A stretch of DNA of 64,000 nucleotides from Ligilactobacillus pabuli. Lineage in GTDB: Bacteria; Bacillota; Bacilli; Lactobacillales; Lactobacillaceae. A program made the translations under genes and the position numbers. The stretch spans positions 71,699 through 135,698 of the forward strand of contig NZ_BQXH01000005.1 of the NCBI RefSeq assembly GCF_022836475.1, in the 5' to 3' direction. The notes beneath the pieces were generated by a model. That model was given only the letters and a program-made list of their open reading frames with translations. It searched no databases and was not told where the DNA came from. This document shows positions 25,406 through 28,200 of this stretch, in pieces (position 1 is the first letter of the stretch; every line of letters starts with the position of its first letter).

Positions 25406-27154
25406 ATGGCTACAATGATGGCAGGACAAGCACTCGCAAAAGTTTTAGAGAAATGGGATATTGATCACGTTTATGGAATTACCGCCGATTCAATCAACAA
25501 CACAGTCGATGGTTTATACCAGGAACGCGACCAGATCAAGTATATTCAGGTTCGTCACGAAGAAGTTGGCGCCTTGGCAGCCGCTGCTGACGCTAAGTTA
25601 ACTGGAACAATTGGTGTTGCATTTGGCTCAGCCGGCCCCGGTTCCGTGCATATGTTAAATGGTTTGTATGAAGCTAAGATGGATCATACTCCAGTTTTGG
25701 CCTTAGTTGGTCAATCAGCAACTGGTGTGATGAACACGAACTTCTTCCAGGAAATGAACCAGGATCCAATTTTTGCCGACGTGGCAGAATTCCACAAGCA
25801 AGTTGTTAACGCTGACCAGATTCCTAAGGTCATTGACGAAGCGATTCGTTCAGCTTATGCAACGAAGTCAGTTTCAGTTGTGATCTTACCAGATGACTTA
25901 TCTGGTCAAGAAATCGACTATCATGAATTAAAGACTGCTAACTTAAGCAAAAAGACTGTTAAACTACCAGTTGACCAAGCTGAAGTTCAACAAGTCGCTG
26001 AAGCAATCAAAAACGCCAAGCGTCCAGTAATGTGGTTAGGTCAAGGTGCTGCTTCAGCCAAAGCTGCCGCTGTGACAGTTGCTGAAAAATTGGGGATGCC
26101 TGTTTTGACAACTGCACCAGCTGCCAACGTCTTCCCAACTGACCATGCTAACTACATGGGAGCTCGTGGTCGTTTGGGTACTAAGCCAGCCTTTGAAGTT
26201 TCACAGGTTAGTGATTTGATCTTGTTTGTTGGGACAAACTACCCATTTGCACGCTACATGCCTGCTGACAAGACAATCATCCAAGTTAACAATAATTTGG
26301 CAGACCTTGGCAAGCAATACGACGCTGACATCACTGTTTTAGCTGATGCCGCTGCCTTCTTGGCAAGTCTTGCACAGACAGATTACCAAGCACCAGTTAG
26401 TGATTTCTTAAAGGCTGCCCAACAGGACCGCGTTTTATGGATGAACTGGTTAGAAAAATTAGCCGCTGATGATCAAAACGGTTTACGCGCTGAAGGTGTC
26501 ATCAAGGCTATCAAAGATAACTCGACTAACAATGCAGTCTTTGGACTTGATGTTGGTAACAACACAGAATGGTCATTACGTCAGCTACCATTTGACAAAG
26601 ACCAAACTTACGCAATGTCACCATGGTATGGCACAATGGGCTTTGGCTTACCAGCAGGTTTGGCCGGCAAATTGAGCTTTCCTGACCGTCAAGTTTGGAC
26701 AATTTCTGGCGATGGTGGTTACGCAATGGTCATGCCAGACTTACTGACAGAAGTTAAGTACCACTTACCAGTAATTAACGTTGTCTTAGAAAACAAAGCC
26801 TTTGGTTACATTGGTCATGAAAAGATCCAGGCTAACCAAGCCCCTTATGGGATCGACTTAGTTGGTGCTGACTGGGGCAAGGCCGCTACAGACATGGGTG
26901 CAATTGGCTTTACAGTTACAAACTTGGCTGAATTAAAGGATGCCATGGCTCAAATCAACGAACTCCAAAAGAATGGTAATGATTTGCCAATCGTCTTGGA
27001 CGCTAAGATTCAAAACATTGACCCAATCGATACTTCCTTTGTACCATTGGATGAGGCCGCTTTTGGCGCTGAGATGGCCGCTAACTATCGTGAAACTTAC
27101 GCAATTTCAGCTGAAGACCAACCATCTTTGAGCGAAATCATGAAGAACCTTTAA
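25406..27154 (+). CDS. pox: Pyruvate oxidase (TPP/FAD dependent)
   Basis: 582 aa; strong resemblance to lactobacillal Pox/SpxB across N-terminal, FAD and TPP-binding (GDGG) domains. Confidence 0.9.
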   Translation: MATMMAGQALAKVLEKWDIDHVYGITADSINNTVDGLYQERDQIKYIQVRHEEVGALAAAADAKLTGTIGVAFGSAGPGSVHMLNGLYEAKMDHTPVLALVGQSATGVMNTNFFQEMNQDPIFADVAEFHKQVVNADQIPKVIDEAIRSAYATKSVSVVILPDDLSGQEIDYHELKTANLSKKTVKLPVDQAEVQQVAEAIKNAKRPVMWLGQGAASAKAAAVTVAEKLGMPVLTTAPAANVFPTDHANYMGARGRLGTKPAFEVSQVSDLILFVGTNYPFARYMPADKTIIQVNNNLADLGKQYDADITVLADAAAFLASLAQTDYQAPVSDFLKAAQQDRVLWMNWLEKLAADDQNGLRAEGVIKAIKDNSTNNAVFGLDVGNNTEWSLRQLPFDKDQTYAMSPWYGTMGFGLPAGLAGKLSFPDRQVWTISGDGGYAMVMPDLLTEVKYHLPVINVVLENKAFGYIGHEKIQANQAPYGIDLVGADWGKAATDMGAIGFTVTNLAELKDAMAQINELQKNGNDLPIVLDAKIQNIDPIDTSFVPLDEAAFGAEMAANYRETYAISAEDQPSLSEIMKNL

Positions 27155-27226
27155 GAGCAAAAACAGATATATAATATGTAGTAACTAGAAAATATGGCTG
27201 GAAAAAACAGCTTTAAACAAATAAAA

Positions 27227-27277
27227 CAGGTGCAAAGCTTTGGGAAAGTCCAAAATTTTGCACCTGTTTTTTTGCAG
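27227..27277 (+). terminator. Rho-independent terminator after pox
   Basis: AACAGGTGCAAA..TTTTGCACCTGTTTTTTT. Confidence 0.7.
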
Positions 27278-27295
27278 TAGTGTTATAATTTTAGT

Positions 27296-27587
27296 TAACA
27301 AGAAGTTTTAAGGGCGGTGGCTGTCTTATCCCCTGCGAGGTGAGGTCTATGGGAACATGGAATAATCTGCAGAAAGGTTTCACGGTCAGTGAGCGTATTC
27401 GAAGCGCTGTCGCTAATGATTGCTTTTGGCACATTAGTGGCTGTCTTGTCCGACAAAAAGGACAAATAAAAAAGCCGCCCCTCATAAACTTTGGCGAGTT
27501 GAGGGCGACTATGTCTAGTCTCTGATACTAACCACCGTCTTTGAAACGGCTTGTGGGAGCTATGTTGACGCATAGCTCCTTTTCTTT
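27296..27587 (+). ncRNA. Candidate plus-strand RNA (about 290 nt) with own extended -10 promoter and terminator; possible type I toxin mRNA
   Basis: TGTTATAAT at 27281-27289. Terminator GGGAGCTATGttgacgCATAGCTCC plus TTTTCTTT at 27555-27587. Internal direct repeats GTGGCTGTCTTRTCC at 27317 and 27437. Small ORFs: 58 aa (27349-27525, SD AGGTGAGG) and 17-26 aa hydrophobic with KKDK tail (27389 or 27416 to 27469). Confidence 0.4.
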
Positions 27588-27589
27588 AC
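27466..27589 (-). ncRNA. Candidate antisense sRNA (about 120 nt), fully complementary to the 3' end of the plus-strand RNA
   Basis: Minus-strand promoter GTGACT-17-TGcTATAAT (-10 at 27596-27601, -35 at 27619-27624). 5' stem-loop GGAGCTATGcgtcaaCATAGCTCC. Terminator GCCCTCA..TGAGGGGCGGCTTTTTT at 27468-27507. Confidence 0.45.
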
Positions 27590-28200
27590 GCCTAAATTAT
27601 AGCATCGTTTTAGCAAAAAGTCACCTGACAGACGATTACTTAATAGTGGGCTTATTTAGCGCAGCCCCAACACGTACCACATTTCGCTGAATTATCATAA
27701 ATTTTGGCCATAAAAATAATGATCAGACTTAATTACTCGTTCACGGCAACTAGTAAAAGTGGATAAGAACCGTTACAATGTTGATTCCCCACCAACACAG
27801 AATTCATTATCACACTATAGTCGAGTCTGACCATTATCTAATAGAGAATTTGACAAGCCCTTAACCTCTTTTCGCTTAGGTTTAAATGAAACAACCGACT
27901 AATTCATAAAAACAATTTACAAATTATGAGCTGTTCATTCTCTACGCCCTTATTGTAATCGCTTTCCGAAAGAAATACAAGTCAAAGATGTAGCAATTTG
28001 ACCAAATTTATGCGGTTAACTCACGGTACTACTCTCATTTGGTTAAGGACCACTTGAAGTGCTTAGCTTAAGTCTAAAAAACACTCGTCATCAATTGGTC
28101 TAGGTGAAATTTTCATCACTAAAACTATCCCCTCCTAGCTAAAATATGGTATTCTATACTTAGTATTATTAAAAATAGATTAGTTAAAGGAGTGGAACCG

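Follow-up and report, generated by a model that had tools for sequence, protein, structure and literature searches.

A predicted chromosomal rli28/RatA-type toxin-antitoxin module with a Hol-Tox family toxin downstream of pox in Ligilactobacillus pabuli

Features of the locus and predicted transcripts

The DNA analysed here is a stretch of 64,000 nucleotides, referred to as the window. Judged from its sequence, the segment from 27276 to 27620, located directly downstream of pox, is one compact type I toxin-antitoxin module (Table 1). The plus strand carries a toxin open reading frame (ORF) of 26 codons, the only toxin-like ORF within the window, and a longer leader ORF that begins upstream of it in another frame and is nested in a GTG-started ORF for 61 amino acids (27340-27525). 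The minus strand is predicted to encode a convergent antisense RNA. A second copy of the module was not found within the 64-kb window.

Transcription of the plus strand would start from an extended -10 promoter without a recognisable -35 region, which is why it was omitted by a consensus scanner. Homologues belonging to four bacterial families have the TGnTATAAT box in the corresponding position. A preliminary description of this DNA had recognised this promoter but let it overlap the pox terminator; in fact, it is adjacent to the terminator and begins 9 nt past its T-run. The transcript of about 290 nt that had been proposed to end at the plus-strand terminator is upheld by a scanner match and by homologues, 28 of 29 of which possess the hairpin and U-run, with compensatory changes in the stem. 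The strong promoter claimed for the minus strand is likewise present and its -10 element is kept in homologues. By sequence, it is stronger than the weak extended -10 promoter of the toxin. The same holds true for the terminator of the minus RNA, whose length had been put at roughly 120 nt. A simple scanner missed this terminator because of its loop of 15 nt; the hairpin and U-run are again found in 28 of 29 homologues, and compensatory changes are apparent (GUCGCCCUC/GAGGGGCGGC here, UAACCAUCUA/UAGAUGGUUA elsewhere). Relative to shuffled sequences the predicted plus and minus RNAs fold with z scores of -6.96 and -4.3, respectively.

The two predicted RNAs overlap by about 122 nt, that is the last 122 nt or so of the plus RNA, in agreement with the earlier claim that the small RNA is complementary to the 3' part of the plus transcript. 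The antisense RNA would thus cover the toxin stop codon, the entire 3' UTR and the terminator of the predicted toxin mRNA. It had also been put forward that the terminator of each RNA forms the 5' stem-loop of the other. This is correct in one direction, as the plus terminator corresponds to the 5' hairpin of the minus RNA, but the minus terminator hairpin corresponds, on the plus RNA, to a hairpin inside the 3' UTR and not to the 5' stem-loop. A cis-encoded antisense RNA that has its own promoter and terminator and overlaps the toxin mRNA, the general hallmark of type I systems, is therefore predicted for this locus.

Table 1. Coordinates of the features of the predicted module (positions in the window)
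Feature	Position	Strand	Basis
Extended -10 promoter of the toxin mRNA, TGTTATAAT	27281-27289	+	read from sequence; rli28 model starts here
Predicted toxin mRNA, about 291 nt	27296-27587	+	ends predicted from promoter and terminator
5' arm of the long-range closing helix (equivalent of P1 of bsrG mRNA)	27307-27320	+	RNAalifold, 29 homologues
Direct repeat, copy 1, GTGGCTGTCTTATCC, overlaps the 5' arm	27317-27331	+	
Stem-loop SL1, holds the strong Shine-Dalgarno sequence and leader ATG	27333-27372	+	MFE and centroid structures
Strong Shine-Dalgarno sequence GAGGTGAGG and leader ATG	27337-27351	+	conserved in plasmid homologues and rli28 consensus
Leader ORF, 58 codons, out of frame with the toxin, ATG at 27349	27349-27525	+	ORF listing
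Toxin Shine-Dalgarno sequence AGAAAGG, 11 nt 5' of the GTG start	27371-27377	+	sequence
Toxin ORF, 26 aa, (M)SVFEALSLMIAFGTLVAVLSDKKDK, GTG start	27389-27469	+	Pfam Hol_Tox
Direct repeat, copy 2, GTGGCTGTCTTGTCC, in toxin codons VAVLS	27437-27451	+	
Predicted antisense antitoxin RNA, RatA-like, about 124 nt (start ~27589, end ~27466)	27466-27589	-	ends predicted
SL3, the antisense-terminator hairpin as read on the plus RNA; loop with invariant CUUU at 27489-27492	27468-27509	+	invariant columns C196-T199
Antisense RNA terminator, stem 27474-27509, U-tract 27473-27468, overlaps the toxin stop codon	27468-27509	-	
3' arm of the closing helix, inside the antisense-covered region	27532-27545	+	RNAalifold, 29 homologues
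Intrinsic terminator of the toxin mRNA, stem 27555-27580, T-run to 27587	27555-27587	+	scanner match
Antisense promoter GTGACT-17-TGcTATAAT	27596-27624	-	10/12 consensus positions, TG extension

The toxin, its RNA families and relatives

The predicted peptide matches the Pfam family Hol_Tox (PF16935) with 35.2 bits (cut-off 23.3, E = 1.1e-8), a score similar to that of the proven toxin BsrG (34.5 bits), the sequence of which was verified to 100% on phage SPbeta. By sequence, it is a BsrE/TxpA-like member of the TxpA/BsrG/BsrE 'Hol-Tox' family. The only NCBIfam match, ComI, is weak. As expected for toxins of this type, the peptide is shorter than 60 residues and consists of a single hydrophobic helix (FEALSLMIAFGTLVAVL) and a charged C-terminal tail (SDKKDK), a pattern that recurs in the homologues. 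It is 88.5% identical to an ORF on an L. brevis plasmid. Its N-terminus, MSVF(E/Q)ALSLM, is kept in homologues, and across four bacterial families the nucleotides vary while the protein pattern MSxF/YxALxLMIAF...KK remains constant. The Shine-Dalgarno consensus G(A/G)A(A/G)GG of the toxin is likewise kept in the alignment. A hydrophobic peptide of 17 to 26 residues had been suggested earlier. The 26-residue, GTG-started form stands, whereas a 17-residue version starting at an internal ATG is ruled out by the conservation of the nine N-terminal residues. With 26 residues and a hydrophobic core of about 17, the toxin lies at the short end of the family and, as it also starts with GTG, might have little or no activity left; toxins of 26 residues and starts with GTG or TTG are, however, common among the homologues.

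A search of Rfam, as advised in the preliminary description, assigned the plus RNA to rli28 (RF01492; 62.7 bits, cut-off 45; model positions 1-186 of 186 at 27274-27459 of the plus strand). The minus RNA matches RatA (RF01776) over its full length (1-91) at 27512-27599, on the expected strand and in the expected position, with a score of 38.2 bits that stays below the cut-off of 49. The BsrG model yielded a weak match of 22 bits. Homologous modules pass both models, with up to 163 bits for rli28 and 49-64 bits for RatA in eight loci. As orthologous segments such as those of L009 (60.1 bits), L014 (64.3 bits) and L016 (58.2 bits) pass the RatA model while the segment in the window, 75% identical to L009 over the module, remains below threshold, the match argues for relatedness to RatA, but judged by the curated threshold the segment does not count as a member.

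The homologues come from blastn and tblastn searches of plasmids and phages and from scans with DNA patterns. The whole module of 310 nt (blastn match over 27299-27605) has counterparts with about 75% identity on 528 Lactobacillaceae plasmids, in which PGAP annotates the gene as 'putative holin-like toxin'. With the toxin as a tblastn query, relatives were found on plasmids of Listeria, Enterococcus and Lactococcus and also in phages; related modules are furthermore present on prophage-like contigs. Promoters, Shine-Dalgarno sequences, toxin ORF, both terminators and the 3' arm of the closing helix described below are conserved in 29-40 homologues. The sequence of the module recurs identically on five independent metagenome contigs and an identical toxin is encoded on another contig, L123.

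The earlier reading of the locus as a type I system of convergent, 3'-overlapping RNAs similar to txpA/RatA and bsrG/SR4 is thus backed by Hol_Tox, by rli28 and by the sub-threshold RatA match, and also by plasmid homology and by covarying or conserved promoters, terminators and closing helix. With a probability of about 85% we regard the locus as a chromosomal copy of the rli28/RatA-type module, the Lactobacillales and Listeria branch of the TxpA/BsrG/BsrE ('Hol-Tox') family. The element is ordinary, a further member of a well-known Gram-positive toxin-antitoxin family, and the gain for the field is modest, since cassettes of this kind abound on plasmids of lactic acid bacteria and the locus is one more chromosomal example. 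Genome annotation would gain, since gene callers report the frame for 58 amino acids or nothing and overlook both RNAs. Such a 58-aa gene is predicted on L001, L002, L004 and L005, and a 62-aa 'hypothetical protein' on a Lacticaseibacillus paracasei plasmid.

Several characterized systems share this family. The bsrE/SR5 and bsrH/as-bsrH pairs of Bacillus subtilis and ComI-type plasmid copies encode Hol_Tox peptides of 26-30 residues with the N-terminus MS(V/T)F(E/Q)AL..M, and in bsrE/SR5 and bsrH/as-bsrH a convergent antisense RNA covers the 3' end, as predicted here. The antisense RNAs of the bsrE and bsrH systems are longer (163-200 nt versus a predicted 124 nt or so), and outside the coding and Shine-Dalgarno region the nucleotides of the Bacillus loci cannot be aligned with those of the window. 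A BsrE-like query gave 92% for Bacillus plasmid toxins and 60-80% for about 350 Lactobacillaceae plasmids, and bsrE/bsrH-like systems have been reported in Lactobacillus and Enterococcus (PMC6562991). RatA, the Rfam family of the antisense strand, is the antitoxin of txpA in the B. subtilis skin element and of EF3263 in Enterococcus faecalis, and pairing takes place at the 3' end in both. On the other hand, TxpA comprises 59 residues and B. subtilis RatA 222 nt, and the RatA score of the window is below threshold. EF3263 is toxic and its 3' UTR is overlapped by an antisense RNA of about 110 nt (PMC2887945); both RatA and txpA are expressed in E. faecalis (PMC7724050). The same Rfam family, convergent layout and leader Shine-Dalgarno sequence with ATG are found for rli28/rli50 with RatA or Rli112 in Listeria and for rli28 of L. 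casei Zhang. On Listeria plasmids, rli28 and ratA are convergent and highly expressed (PMC9484302), and Rli50 (306 nt) overlaps the antisense RNA Rli112 (PMC8079631). Evidence for transcription has also been obtained for rli28/ratA of L. casei Zhang (PMC8249650). Most of the Listeria literature treats rli28/rli50 RNAs as non-coding. In our reading the 'sRNAs' catalogued as rli28 and RatA in Listeria and lactobacilli belong together in a single conserved toxin-antitoxin unit, the closing helix of which resembles that of bsrG.

The gene order around pox is common to L. acidipiscis, Ca. L. excrementavium and L. salitolerans, all of which lack the module. Since the closest relatives keep the gene order, the module is, by comparison of the sequences, a lineage-specific chromosomal insertion into an otherwise syntenic region. 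Synteny downstream of pox, which the preliminary description had wanted checked in relatives, does not extend to the module: at this site it is absent in 30 related species, and no toxin-like ORF is present in any pox locus of the related species scanned. The sole find was an orphan RatA-like fragment without a toxin in Lactobacillus sp. ESL0679 (L024), some 1 kb away from pox.

Structure of the toxin mRNA and possible antisense action

[quoted passage not shown] Across 29 homologues 97.6% of the cells are paired, compared with 44-67% in slid controls; five pairs show compensatory double changes, and the observed covariation score was reached in none of 500 shuffles. The bsrG/SR4 system of SPbeta has a toxin of the same Pfam family, an mRNA of about 290 nt, a P1 helix of 5' and 3' end before the terminator followed by an SL1 that bears the Shine-Dalgarno sequence, and an antisense RNA overlapping some 120 nt of the 3' end, as predicted for the window. 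P1 of bsrG has been probed experimentally and pairs nucleotides 1-35 with 232-262 directly 5' of the terminator (PMC3834814). Here, SL1 would pair AGGU (27338-27341) with AUCU (27365-27368) and UCUAUG (27346-27351) with CAUGGA (27356-27361), and one of its pairs (alignment columns 57/91) covaries, being GC in 16 and AU in 13 sequences. BsrG differs by its length of 38 residues and, unlike the locus studied here, bsrG lacks a separate strong upstream ribosome-binding site with ATG.

In the mechanism that we propose, the weak extended -10 promoter would drive synthesis of the mRNA for a single-helix membrane peptide of 26 residues, closed by its 5'-3' helix as in the probed bsrG mRNA, and the stronger convergent promoter that of the antisense RNA, which by analogy with txpA/RatA, bsrE/SR5 and bsrG/SR4 would be present in excess. 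The first contact would, again by analogy, be made between the antisense terminator loop and the complementary loop of SL3 with its invariant, U-turn-like CUUU(G) motif. In bsrG/SR4 the terminator loop of the antisense RNA likewise contacts a complementary mRNA loop with a YUNR motif (PMC3834814), and the window contains an equivalent hairpin with invariant CUUU in the loop. Pairing would then zip to a duplex of about 120 bp, and cleavage by RNase III would destroy the toxin mRNA before it is translated. This degradation-only course is extrapolated from Bacillus systems; all B. subtilis antitoxins of this group form duplexes of 100-140 bp with the 3' end of the mRNA, and in every case but bsrH this leads to cleavage by RNase III (PMC6562991). 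Since the antisense segment GUUUCAAAGACGGUGG resembles the 5' arm of the mRNA (GUUUUAAGGGCGGUGG), pairing would also displace the 5' end from the closing helix and probably expose it to 5'-dependent decay. In constraint folding, occupation of the antisense target freed the 5' arm in all 10 homologues modelled. SR4 additionally blocks translation by lengthening a helix that sequesters the Shine-Dalgarno sequence, whereas in the same 10 homologues antisense occupancy had no consistent effect on accessibility of the toxin Shine-Dalgarno sequence, and an SR4-like effect was not consistently seen; thermodynamic modelling leaves room for an additional effect of the antisense RNA on translation. Once the labile antisense RNA falls, the peptide would be made, insert into the membrane and stop growth. 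Post-segregational killing would be the task of the module on plasmids; for the chromosomal copy, stabilisation of the region or a response to stress may be considered.

The Fst/par system of pAD1 and the Lpt systems of Lacticaseibacillus plasmids, to which the toxin had been likened, resemble the locus in possessing convergent RNAs and a small, hydrophobic toxin that ends in a charged tail; their antitoxin, too, has a stronger promoter than the toxin (PMC5608710), and they reside on plasmids of lactic acid bacteria. Kinship is excluded by the different toxin family, Hol_Tox being the only Pfam match at E <= 10 and no Fst model being matched, and by the extent of the antisense RNA. In Fst/Lpt it also pairs with 5' direct repeats over the start codon, whereas here it reaches neither the start codon nor the 5' region. 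The direct repeats that had been noted are present, one base off the positions implied earlier, with 0.16 chance matches to GTGGCTGTCTTRTCC expected within the window. In contrast to those of Fst/Lpt they are same-sense and not conserved. L011, the closest plasmid homologue, is the only one to share them, which makes a role as interaction repeats of the Fst type unlikely, and they were rejected as interaction sites also because the antisense RNA is not complementary to them.

Competing explanations and the leader frame

The plus RNA could, in principle, be the 3' UTR or a read-through tail of pox and the antisense promoter and terminator chance matches. The module does begin only 9 nt after the pox terminator and its plus promoter lacks a -35 region. 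Yet more than 500 plasmids, and prophage-like contigs as well, carry the same module without any link to pox, the nearest species have no module behind pox, and the -10 boxes and terminators are conserved with covariation, so that the comparative sequence data already contradict this reading, which can practically be dismissed. An inactive relic of a plasmid-derived cassette, devoid of a functional toxin but possibly keeping the RNAs, deserves more attention. The GTG start, the short toxin, the promoter without -35 and a RatA score below the gathering threshold all point in this direction; absence from the closest species implies that the module is dispensable, and the fragment in Lactobacillus sp. 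ESL0679 demonstrates that such remnants exist. We nevertheless consider decay unlikely: every element is intact (both promoters, terminators, Shine-Dalgarno sequences, the ORF and the closing helix), the metagenome contigs carry it unchanged, homologues with equally short toxins and GTG or TTG starts are numerous, and the toxin ORF differs from that of L011 mostly by synonymous changes.

Both remaining explanations deny the 26-codon frame its leading role. The plus transcript might mainly be a regulatory RNA, acting in trans or with dual function, with the small ORF as an incidental feature. This idea derives from the listing of rli28 as an sRNA in Rfam, from reviews that treat Rli50/Rli28 of Listeria as non-coding RNAs with predicted mRNA targets and virulence phenotypes (PMC8079631), and from L. 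casei Zhang, in which knockout of rli28c gave better growth that was ascribed to sRNA function (PMC8249650). It is improbable because the ORF is conserved as a protein in four bacterial families and passes a curated toxin family model; toxicity has been shown for the family members TxpA, BsrG, BsrE and EF3263 (PMC6562991, PMC2887945), and loss of a toxin would fit the better growth of the knockout equally well. The leader ORF, which the preliminary description had listed as a 58-aa ORF with a strong Shine-Dalgarno sequence, might encode the real product, a toxin or small protein, leaving the 26-aa frame secondary. Frame, Shine-Dalgarno sequence and ATG are real, the ribosome-binding site is the best at the locus (ATG, a spacer of 5 nt and 7 nt that can pair with the 3' end of 16S rRNA) and automatic gene callers predict the gene. 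However, a conserved protein is not apparent. The 58-aa product matches no Pfam or NCBIfam family and is not hydrophobic, the leader varies in length (21 to 61 codons in close Lactobacillaceae homologues, 4 to 15 in Enterococcus, Listeria and Lactococcus), and conservation is limited to the first 14 codons or so, coinciding with an RNA hairpin conserved at all three codon positions. We therefore rule out this ORF as a protein and see hardly any room for it as the true product.

Within the preferred reading, a toxin-antitoxin module with the 26-aa peptide as the toxin, the conserved start of the leader calls for another explanation. Strong Shine-Dalgarno sequence and ATG are present in 38 of 56 independently sampled loci, compared with 3% of shuffles, and missing in 15. 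A first pattern used on viral contigs demanded both elements and was thus circular in this respect; a second scan, of a metagenome collection, was anchored on toxin codons and the 3' arm. In Bacillus bsrE/comI-type loci (L206, L207) the homologous element, GGGGGTGATGC(T/CA)ATG with the motif GG(A/G)GGTGAT followed by ATG, is the Shine-Dalgarno sequence and start of the toxin itself, whereas in the window it starts the leader. An insert between this motif and toxin codon 2, 35-40 nt long in the rli28/RatA branch and 40 nt in the window, carries an anti-Shine-Dalgarno sequence, a second Shine-Dalgarno sequence and, in the window, a new GTG start, and has thereby created the leader ORF. The upstream element would accordingly be the ancestral ribosome-binding site of the toxin, and the leader that it opens probably modulates access to the toxin start. 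It is a tentative and rather doubtful proposition that the rli28/RatA branch has uncoupled the ancestral site from the toxin and that toxin synthesis, provided that ribosomes do translate the leader, would hinge on this translation. The route would be termination-reinitiation or an unfolding of the mok/hok type. The hok/mok/sok system of plasmid R1 is a functional analogy only, with 5'-3' closure of the mRNA and an out-of-frame upstream frame with the better ribosome-binding site; its sequences are unrelated, its host is Gram-negative and Sok targets the mok ribosome-binding site at the 5' side rather than the 3' UTR. In most Enterococcus and Listeria copies the leader (10-13 codons) reads through the toxin Shine-Dalgarno sequence and stops 1-4 nt before the toxin start, while in Lactobacillaceae copies it overlaps the toxin out of frame, as do the 58 codons in the window. 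A universal coupling by termination-reinitiation is weakened by the unbiased sample, in which 12 of the 56 leaders end 13-34 nt upstream, in addition to the 15 loci without the strong start. If true, leader coupling would give Gram-positive type I systems a level of control for which the literature searched contains no description. The conserved leader frame, which descends from the start of the ancestral toxin, is a candidate for translational control that would be simple to test.

The 600 bp following the module, described earlier as non-coding, include a block of about 210 nt that is strongly conserved between species.

Family assignment of the RNA pair downstream of pox

With a probability that we put at about 0.85, the convergent RNA pair downstream of pox is a type I toxin-antitoxin module of the TxpA/BsrE-RatA type and, as such, a further member of an already known toxin-antitoxin type. 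All promoters, terminators and other elements claimed for the pair in the preliminary description were found between 27281 and 27625, and its type I toxin-antitoxin reading is supported, with corrections. Fold z-scores are -6.96 for the predicted plus transcript and -4.3 for the minus transcript. Their predicted overlap of about 122 nt comprises toxin stop codon, 3' UTR and terminator. A second module or second toxin-like ORF was not found in the 64-kb window.

Features of the pox-toxin-antitoxin region (window coordinates) and of homologous loci or contigs (designated by L-numbers, own coordinates)
Feature	Position	Strand	Remarks
pox (pyruvate oxidase)	25406-27154		three TPP-enzyme domains
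pox hairpin terminator	27223-27275		strong
Plus-strand -10 TGTTATAAT	27281-27289	+	nine bases 3' of pox terminator; no -35; promoter not picked up by consensus scanner
Predicted toxin mRNA	~27296-27587	+	
Toxin ORF, 26 aa, MSVFEALSLMIAFGTLVAVLSDKKDK	27389-27469	+	GTG start
Toxin mRNA terminator	27555-27580 + T-run	+	consensus scanner
Antisense promoter GTGACT-17-TGcTATAAT	27624-27596	-	consensus scanner, 10/12 matches
Predicted antisense RNA	~27589-27466	-	
Antisense terminator	stem 27474-27509, U-tract 27473-27468	-	15-nt loop; not picked up by consensus scanner
Two-module contigs	L058 597-786 + 1296-1476; L079 6919 + 10070; L101, L140, L161, L175, L193		
Annotation-affected copies	L001, L002, L004, L005; L013 955-1143; L015 968-1084; L012 1618-1680; L018 1118-1180		L001, L002, L004 and L005: metagenome copies of the window locus

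BsrG of prophage SPbeta is an experimentally established type I toxin; its sequence was matched at 100% on the SPbeta phage genome and belongs to Pfam PF16935 (Hol_Tox) with 34.5 bits. The 26-aa toxin ORF passes the same model with 35.2 bits (cut-off 23.3), and the 61-aa and 49-aa ORFs remained without a match in family-model searches. The comparison with Rfam proposed in the preliminary description gave a divided result: positions 27274-27459 of the plus strand are a full-length RF01492 rli28 (62.7 bits, cut-off 45), whereas the minus strand (27599-27512) matches RF01776 RatA over its full length but stays under the cut-off of 49 with 38.2 bits. The Rfam BsrG RNA model responds weakly to the module (22 bits). 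Homologous modules carry rli28 at gathering thresholds with up to 163 bits, and in eight of them RatA also reaches its threshold (49-64 bits). Since three of these eight, the Lactobacillaceae modules L009, L016 and L018, are about 75% identical to the window module, its antisense half is a homologue of bona fide RatA-family members, though under the cut-off itself. That the module is functional today is a claim that we would make, from sequence, with less confidence than that of its identity.

A blastn search of PLSDB with 27270-27630 returned 528 plasmid records (Lactiplantibacillus 266, Lacticaseibacillus 54, Levilactobacillus 49, Pediococcus 38, the remainder from other genera), with about 75% identity over 27299-27605, that is over toxin mRNA and antisense region together. 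These homologues are labelled 'putative holin-like toxin' at NCBI. With the toxin peptide as query, tblastn added plasmids of Listeria (97), Enterococcus (41) and Lactococcus (10) as well as phages or satellites of Listeria, Enterococcus, Brevibacillus and Streptococcus; the nearest peptide, 88.5% identical, comes from a plasmid of Levilactobacillus brevis. Alignments of 11, 40 and 29 modules keep both -10 boxes, the 5' segment GAAGTTTTAAGGGCGGTGGCT, a strong SD with ATG, toxin SD and ORF, an A-run with GC-rich hairpin, the box CCACCG(Y)3TTnnAACGG and the terminator hairpin.

The TxpA family has been extended to the Lactobacillales by Fozo et al. (PMC2887945), who showed E. faecalis EF3263 to be toxic and to have an antisense RNA of about 110 nt across its 3' UTR. 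The bsrE/bsrH-like systems are present in Lactobacillus and Enterococcus (Brantl and Mueller, PMC6562991), Listeria plasmids carry a convergent rli28/bsrH-like ORF/ratA arrangement (Anast et al., PMC9484302), and L. casei Zhang has five rli28 copies plus ratA (Wang et al., PMC8249650). The window module is not related to the Lpt system, which is Fst-like and carried on Lacticaseibacillus plasmids (PMC5608710). Several prophage-like or metagenome contigs bear two modules within a few kb, which recalls reports of several rli28 copies per genome from L. casei Zhang and of multi-copy rli28 loci from Listeria. The SPbeta bsrG locus and a B. subtilis plasmid locus are nearly identical in 5' UTR and promoter region, the latter encoding a BsrE-like toxin in place of BsrG; this likeness fits the toxin-swapping inside conserved bsrG/SR4 frames mentioned in PMC6562991.

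RNA structure and proposed antisense action

RNAalifold retained two helices in 29 homologues. In the 13-pair closing helix the mRNA 5' end (27307-27320) pairs with the 3' UTR (27532-27545) directly before the terminator; 97.6% of cells are paired, the first homologue-search pattern having fixed part of the 3' arm and not the 5' arm, and five pairs exhibit double-sided changes. The strong upstream SD is sequestered in the second helix (AGGU 27338-27341 with AUCU 27365-27368 in the window), one pair of which alternates between G-C (16 sequences) and A-U (13). When both helices were tested jointly, none of 500 shuffles reached the observed covariation score, and pairing fell to 44-67% once the 3' partner was shifted by 1-3 columns. 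The architecture is the same as that of P1 in bsrG mRNA, where probing has established pairing of nt 1-35 with nt 232-262, one nucleotide before the terminator, with the SD in SL1 atop P1 (PMC3834814). A 15-nt direct repeat (14/15 identical; 27317-27331 in the 5' arm of the closing helix and 27437-27451 in toxin codons VAVLS) is common only to the window and the L. brevis plasmid, whose toxin is of the same short type.

Both terminators consist of hairpin and U-run in 28/29 homologues; their stems differ yet stay complementary. On the plus strand the antisense terminator hairpin is an internal mRNA stem-loop with an invariant CUUU (27489-27492) in its loop, corresponding to the site of first contact between bsrG loop 3 and the SR4 terminator loop (PMC3834814; PMC6562991). 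As the antisense segment GUUUCAAAGACGGUGG nearly copies the mRNA 5' arm GUUUUAAGGGCGGUGG, both would compete for the same 3' arm. Antisense occupancy was modelled in ten homologues by barring pairing in the covered region: the unpaired share of the 5' arm rose from 0-14% to 28-75% in nine of them and from 31% to 42% in locus L017, and toxin SD/start accessibility did not shift consistently among the ten. On these grounds a RatA/SR5-type mechanism seems likelier to us than an SR4-type translational block: antisense RNA and toxin mRNA would form a duplex, RNase III would cleave it and the toxin mRNA would then decay.

The leader frame and the upstream start site

Of the 58-aa ORF with strong SD put forward in the preliminary description, SD and ATG GAGGTGAGGTCTATG (27337-27351) are conserved and the ORF behind them is variable. 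A first sample of modules came from a pattern requiring this motif and is circular for it. In Enterococcus- and Listeria-type copies of this sample the leader has 10-15 codons and extends across the toxin SD; its stop mostly precedes the toxin start by 1-3 nt, and in a few copies follows it by 4-8 nt. Lactobacillaceae leaders have 21-60 codons and are out of frame. Owing to the circularity, a second sample (56 distinct loci) was anchored only on toxin codons and 3' arm. In 38/56 loci the toxin start is preceded, at a distance of 35-50 nt, by an ATG with an SD of 6 nt or more, compared to 3% of shuffled upstream regions; 15/56 have no such site. Among the 38 leaders, 19 terminate 1-4 nt ahead of the toxin start and 12 terminate 13-34 nt upstream, while 7 run into the toxin ORF. 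Three variants from metagenome loci are in-frame leader-toxin fusions, N-terminally extended peptides of 39-40 aa (MNVSIKSGERRAELSVFEAL..., MGTWKNRQKVSQPMSVFQAL..., MVLTKSSLKEVKPMSTYEAL...), which may be working variants or copies in decay, or may stem from assembly errors.

In Bacillus bsrE/comI-type plasmid loci, GGGGGTGATGC(T/CA)ATG serves the toxin itself as ribosome-binding site and start, reading ATG TCA ACA TTT CAG. Since the same motif starts the toxin there, the upstream site of the rli28 branch, i.e. the Lactobacillales/Listeria members of the TxpA/BsrG/BsrE (Hol_Tox) family, would most simply be the ancestral toxin start. An insert of 35-40 nt, with 40 nt in the window, lies between it and toxin codon 2 and supplies anti-SD, second SD and new start codon. 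A non-exhaustive literature search yielded no description of leader translation or its coupling to the toxin, and of the whole module only the leader frame from the presumed ancestral start may be worth further study. The cassette is annotated inconsistently: gene callers pick a 58-62-aa out-of-frame ORF and not the toxin, PGAP 'putative holin-like toxin' entries range from 20 to 38 aa due to differing start choices, and several plasmid copies bear no annotation at all.

Genomic context

Pox is most similar to that of Ligilactobacillus acidipiscis (88% identity), followed by Ca. L. excrementavium (84%) and L. salitolerans (83%); its exact sequence is confined to metagenome contigs, which bear an identical module. 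The synteny comparison suggested in the preliminary description showed a shared gene order without the module: the order glutathione peroxidase, DUF488, acetyltransferase, pox, intergenic region, glutamine-type ABC transporter, Usp is common to these three species and the window, and the module was not found in their pox intergenic regions, which are otherwise unalignable. Since gene order is kept and the module absent in the relatives, it is a lineage-specific insertion in a variable intergenic region of the chromosome; the L. acidipiscis counterpart sits on a 2.66-Mb contig.

About 1 kb downstream of pox in Lactobacillus sp. ESL0679 (L024 6681-6848), there is an orphan fragment with similarity to the 3' (RatA) half of the module alone (39.5 bits against RatA, under threshold), and no toxin-like ORF was found near it. 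Between module and ABC-transporter gene in the window lies a non-coding block of about 210 nt (27775-27985, within 27702-27985), 77-81% identical across four Ligilactobacillus species and conserved as much as the flanking genes. It contains no ORF above 33 aa and has no Rfam match. Its consensus fold is -33 kcal/mol on the minus versus -14 kcal/mol on the plus strand, and it may represent an sRNA or leader that has escaped annotation.
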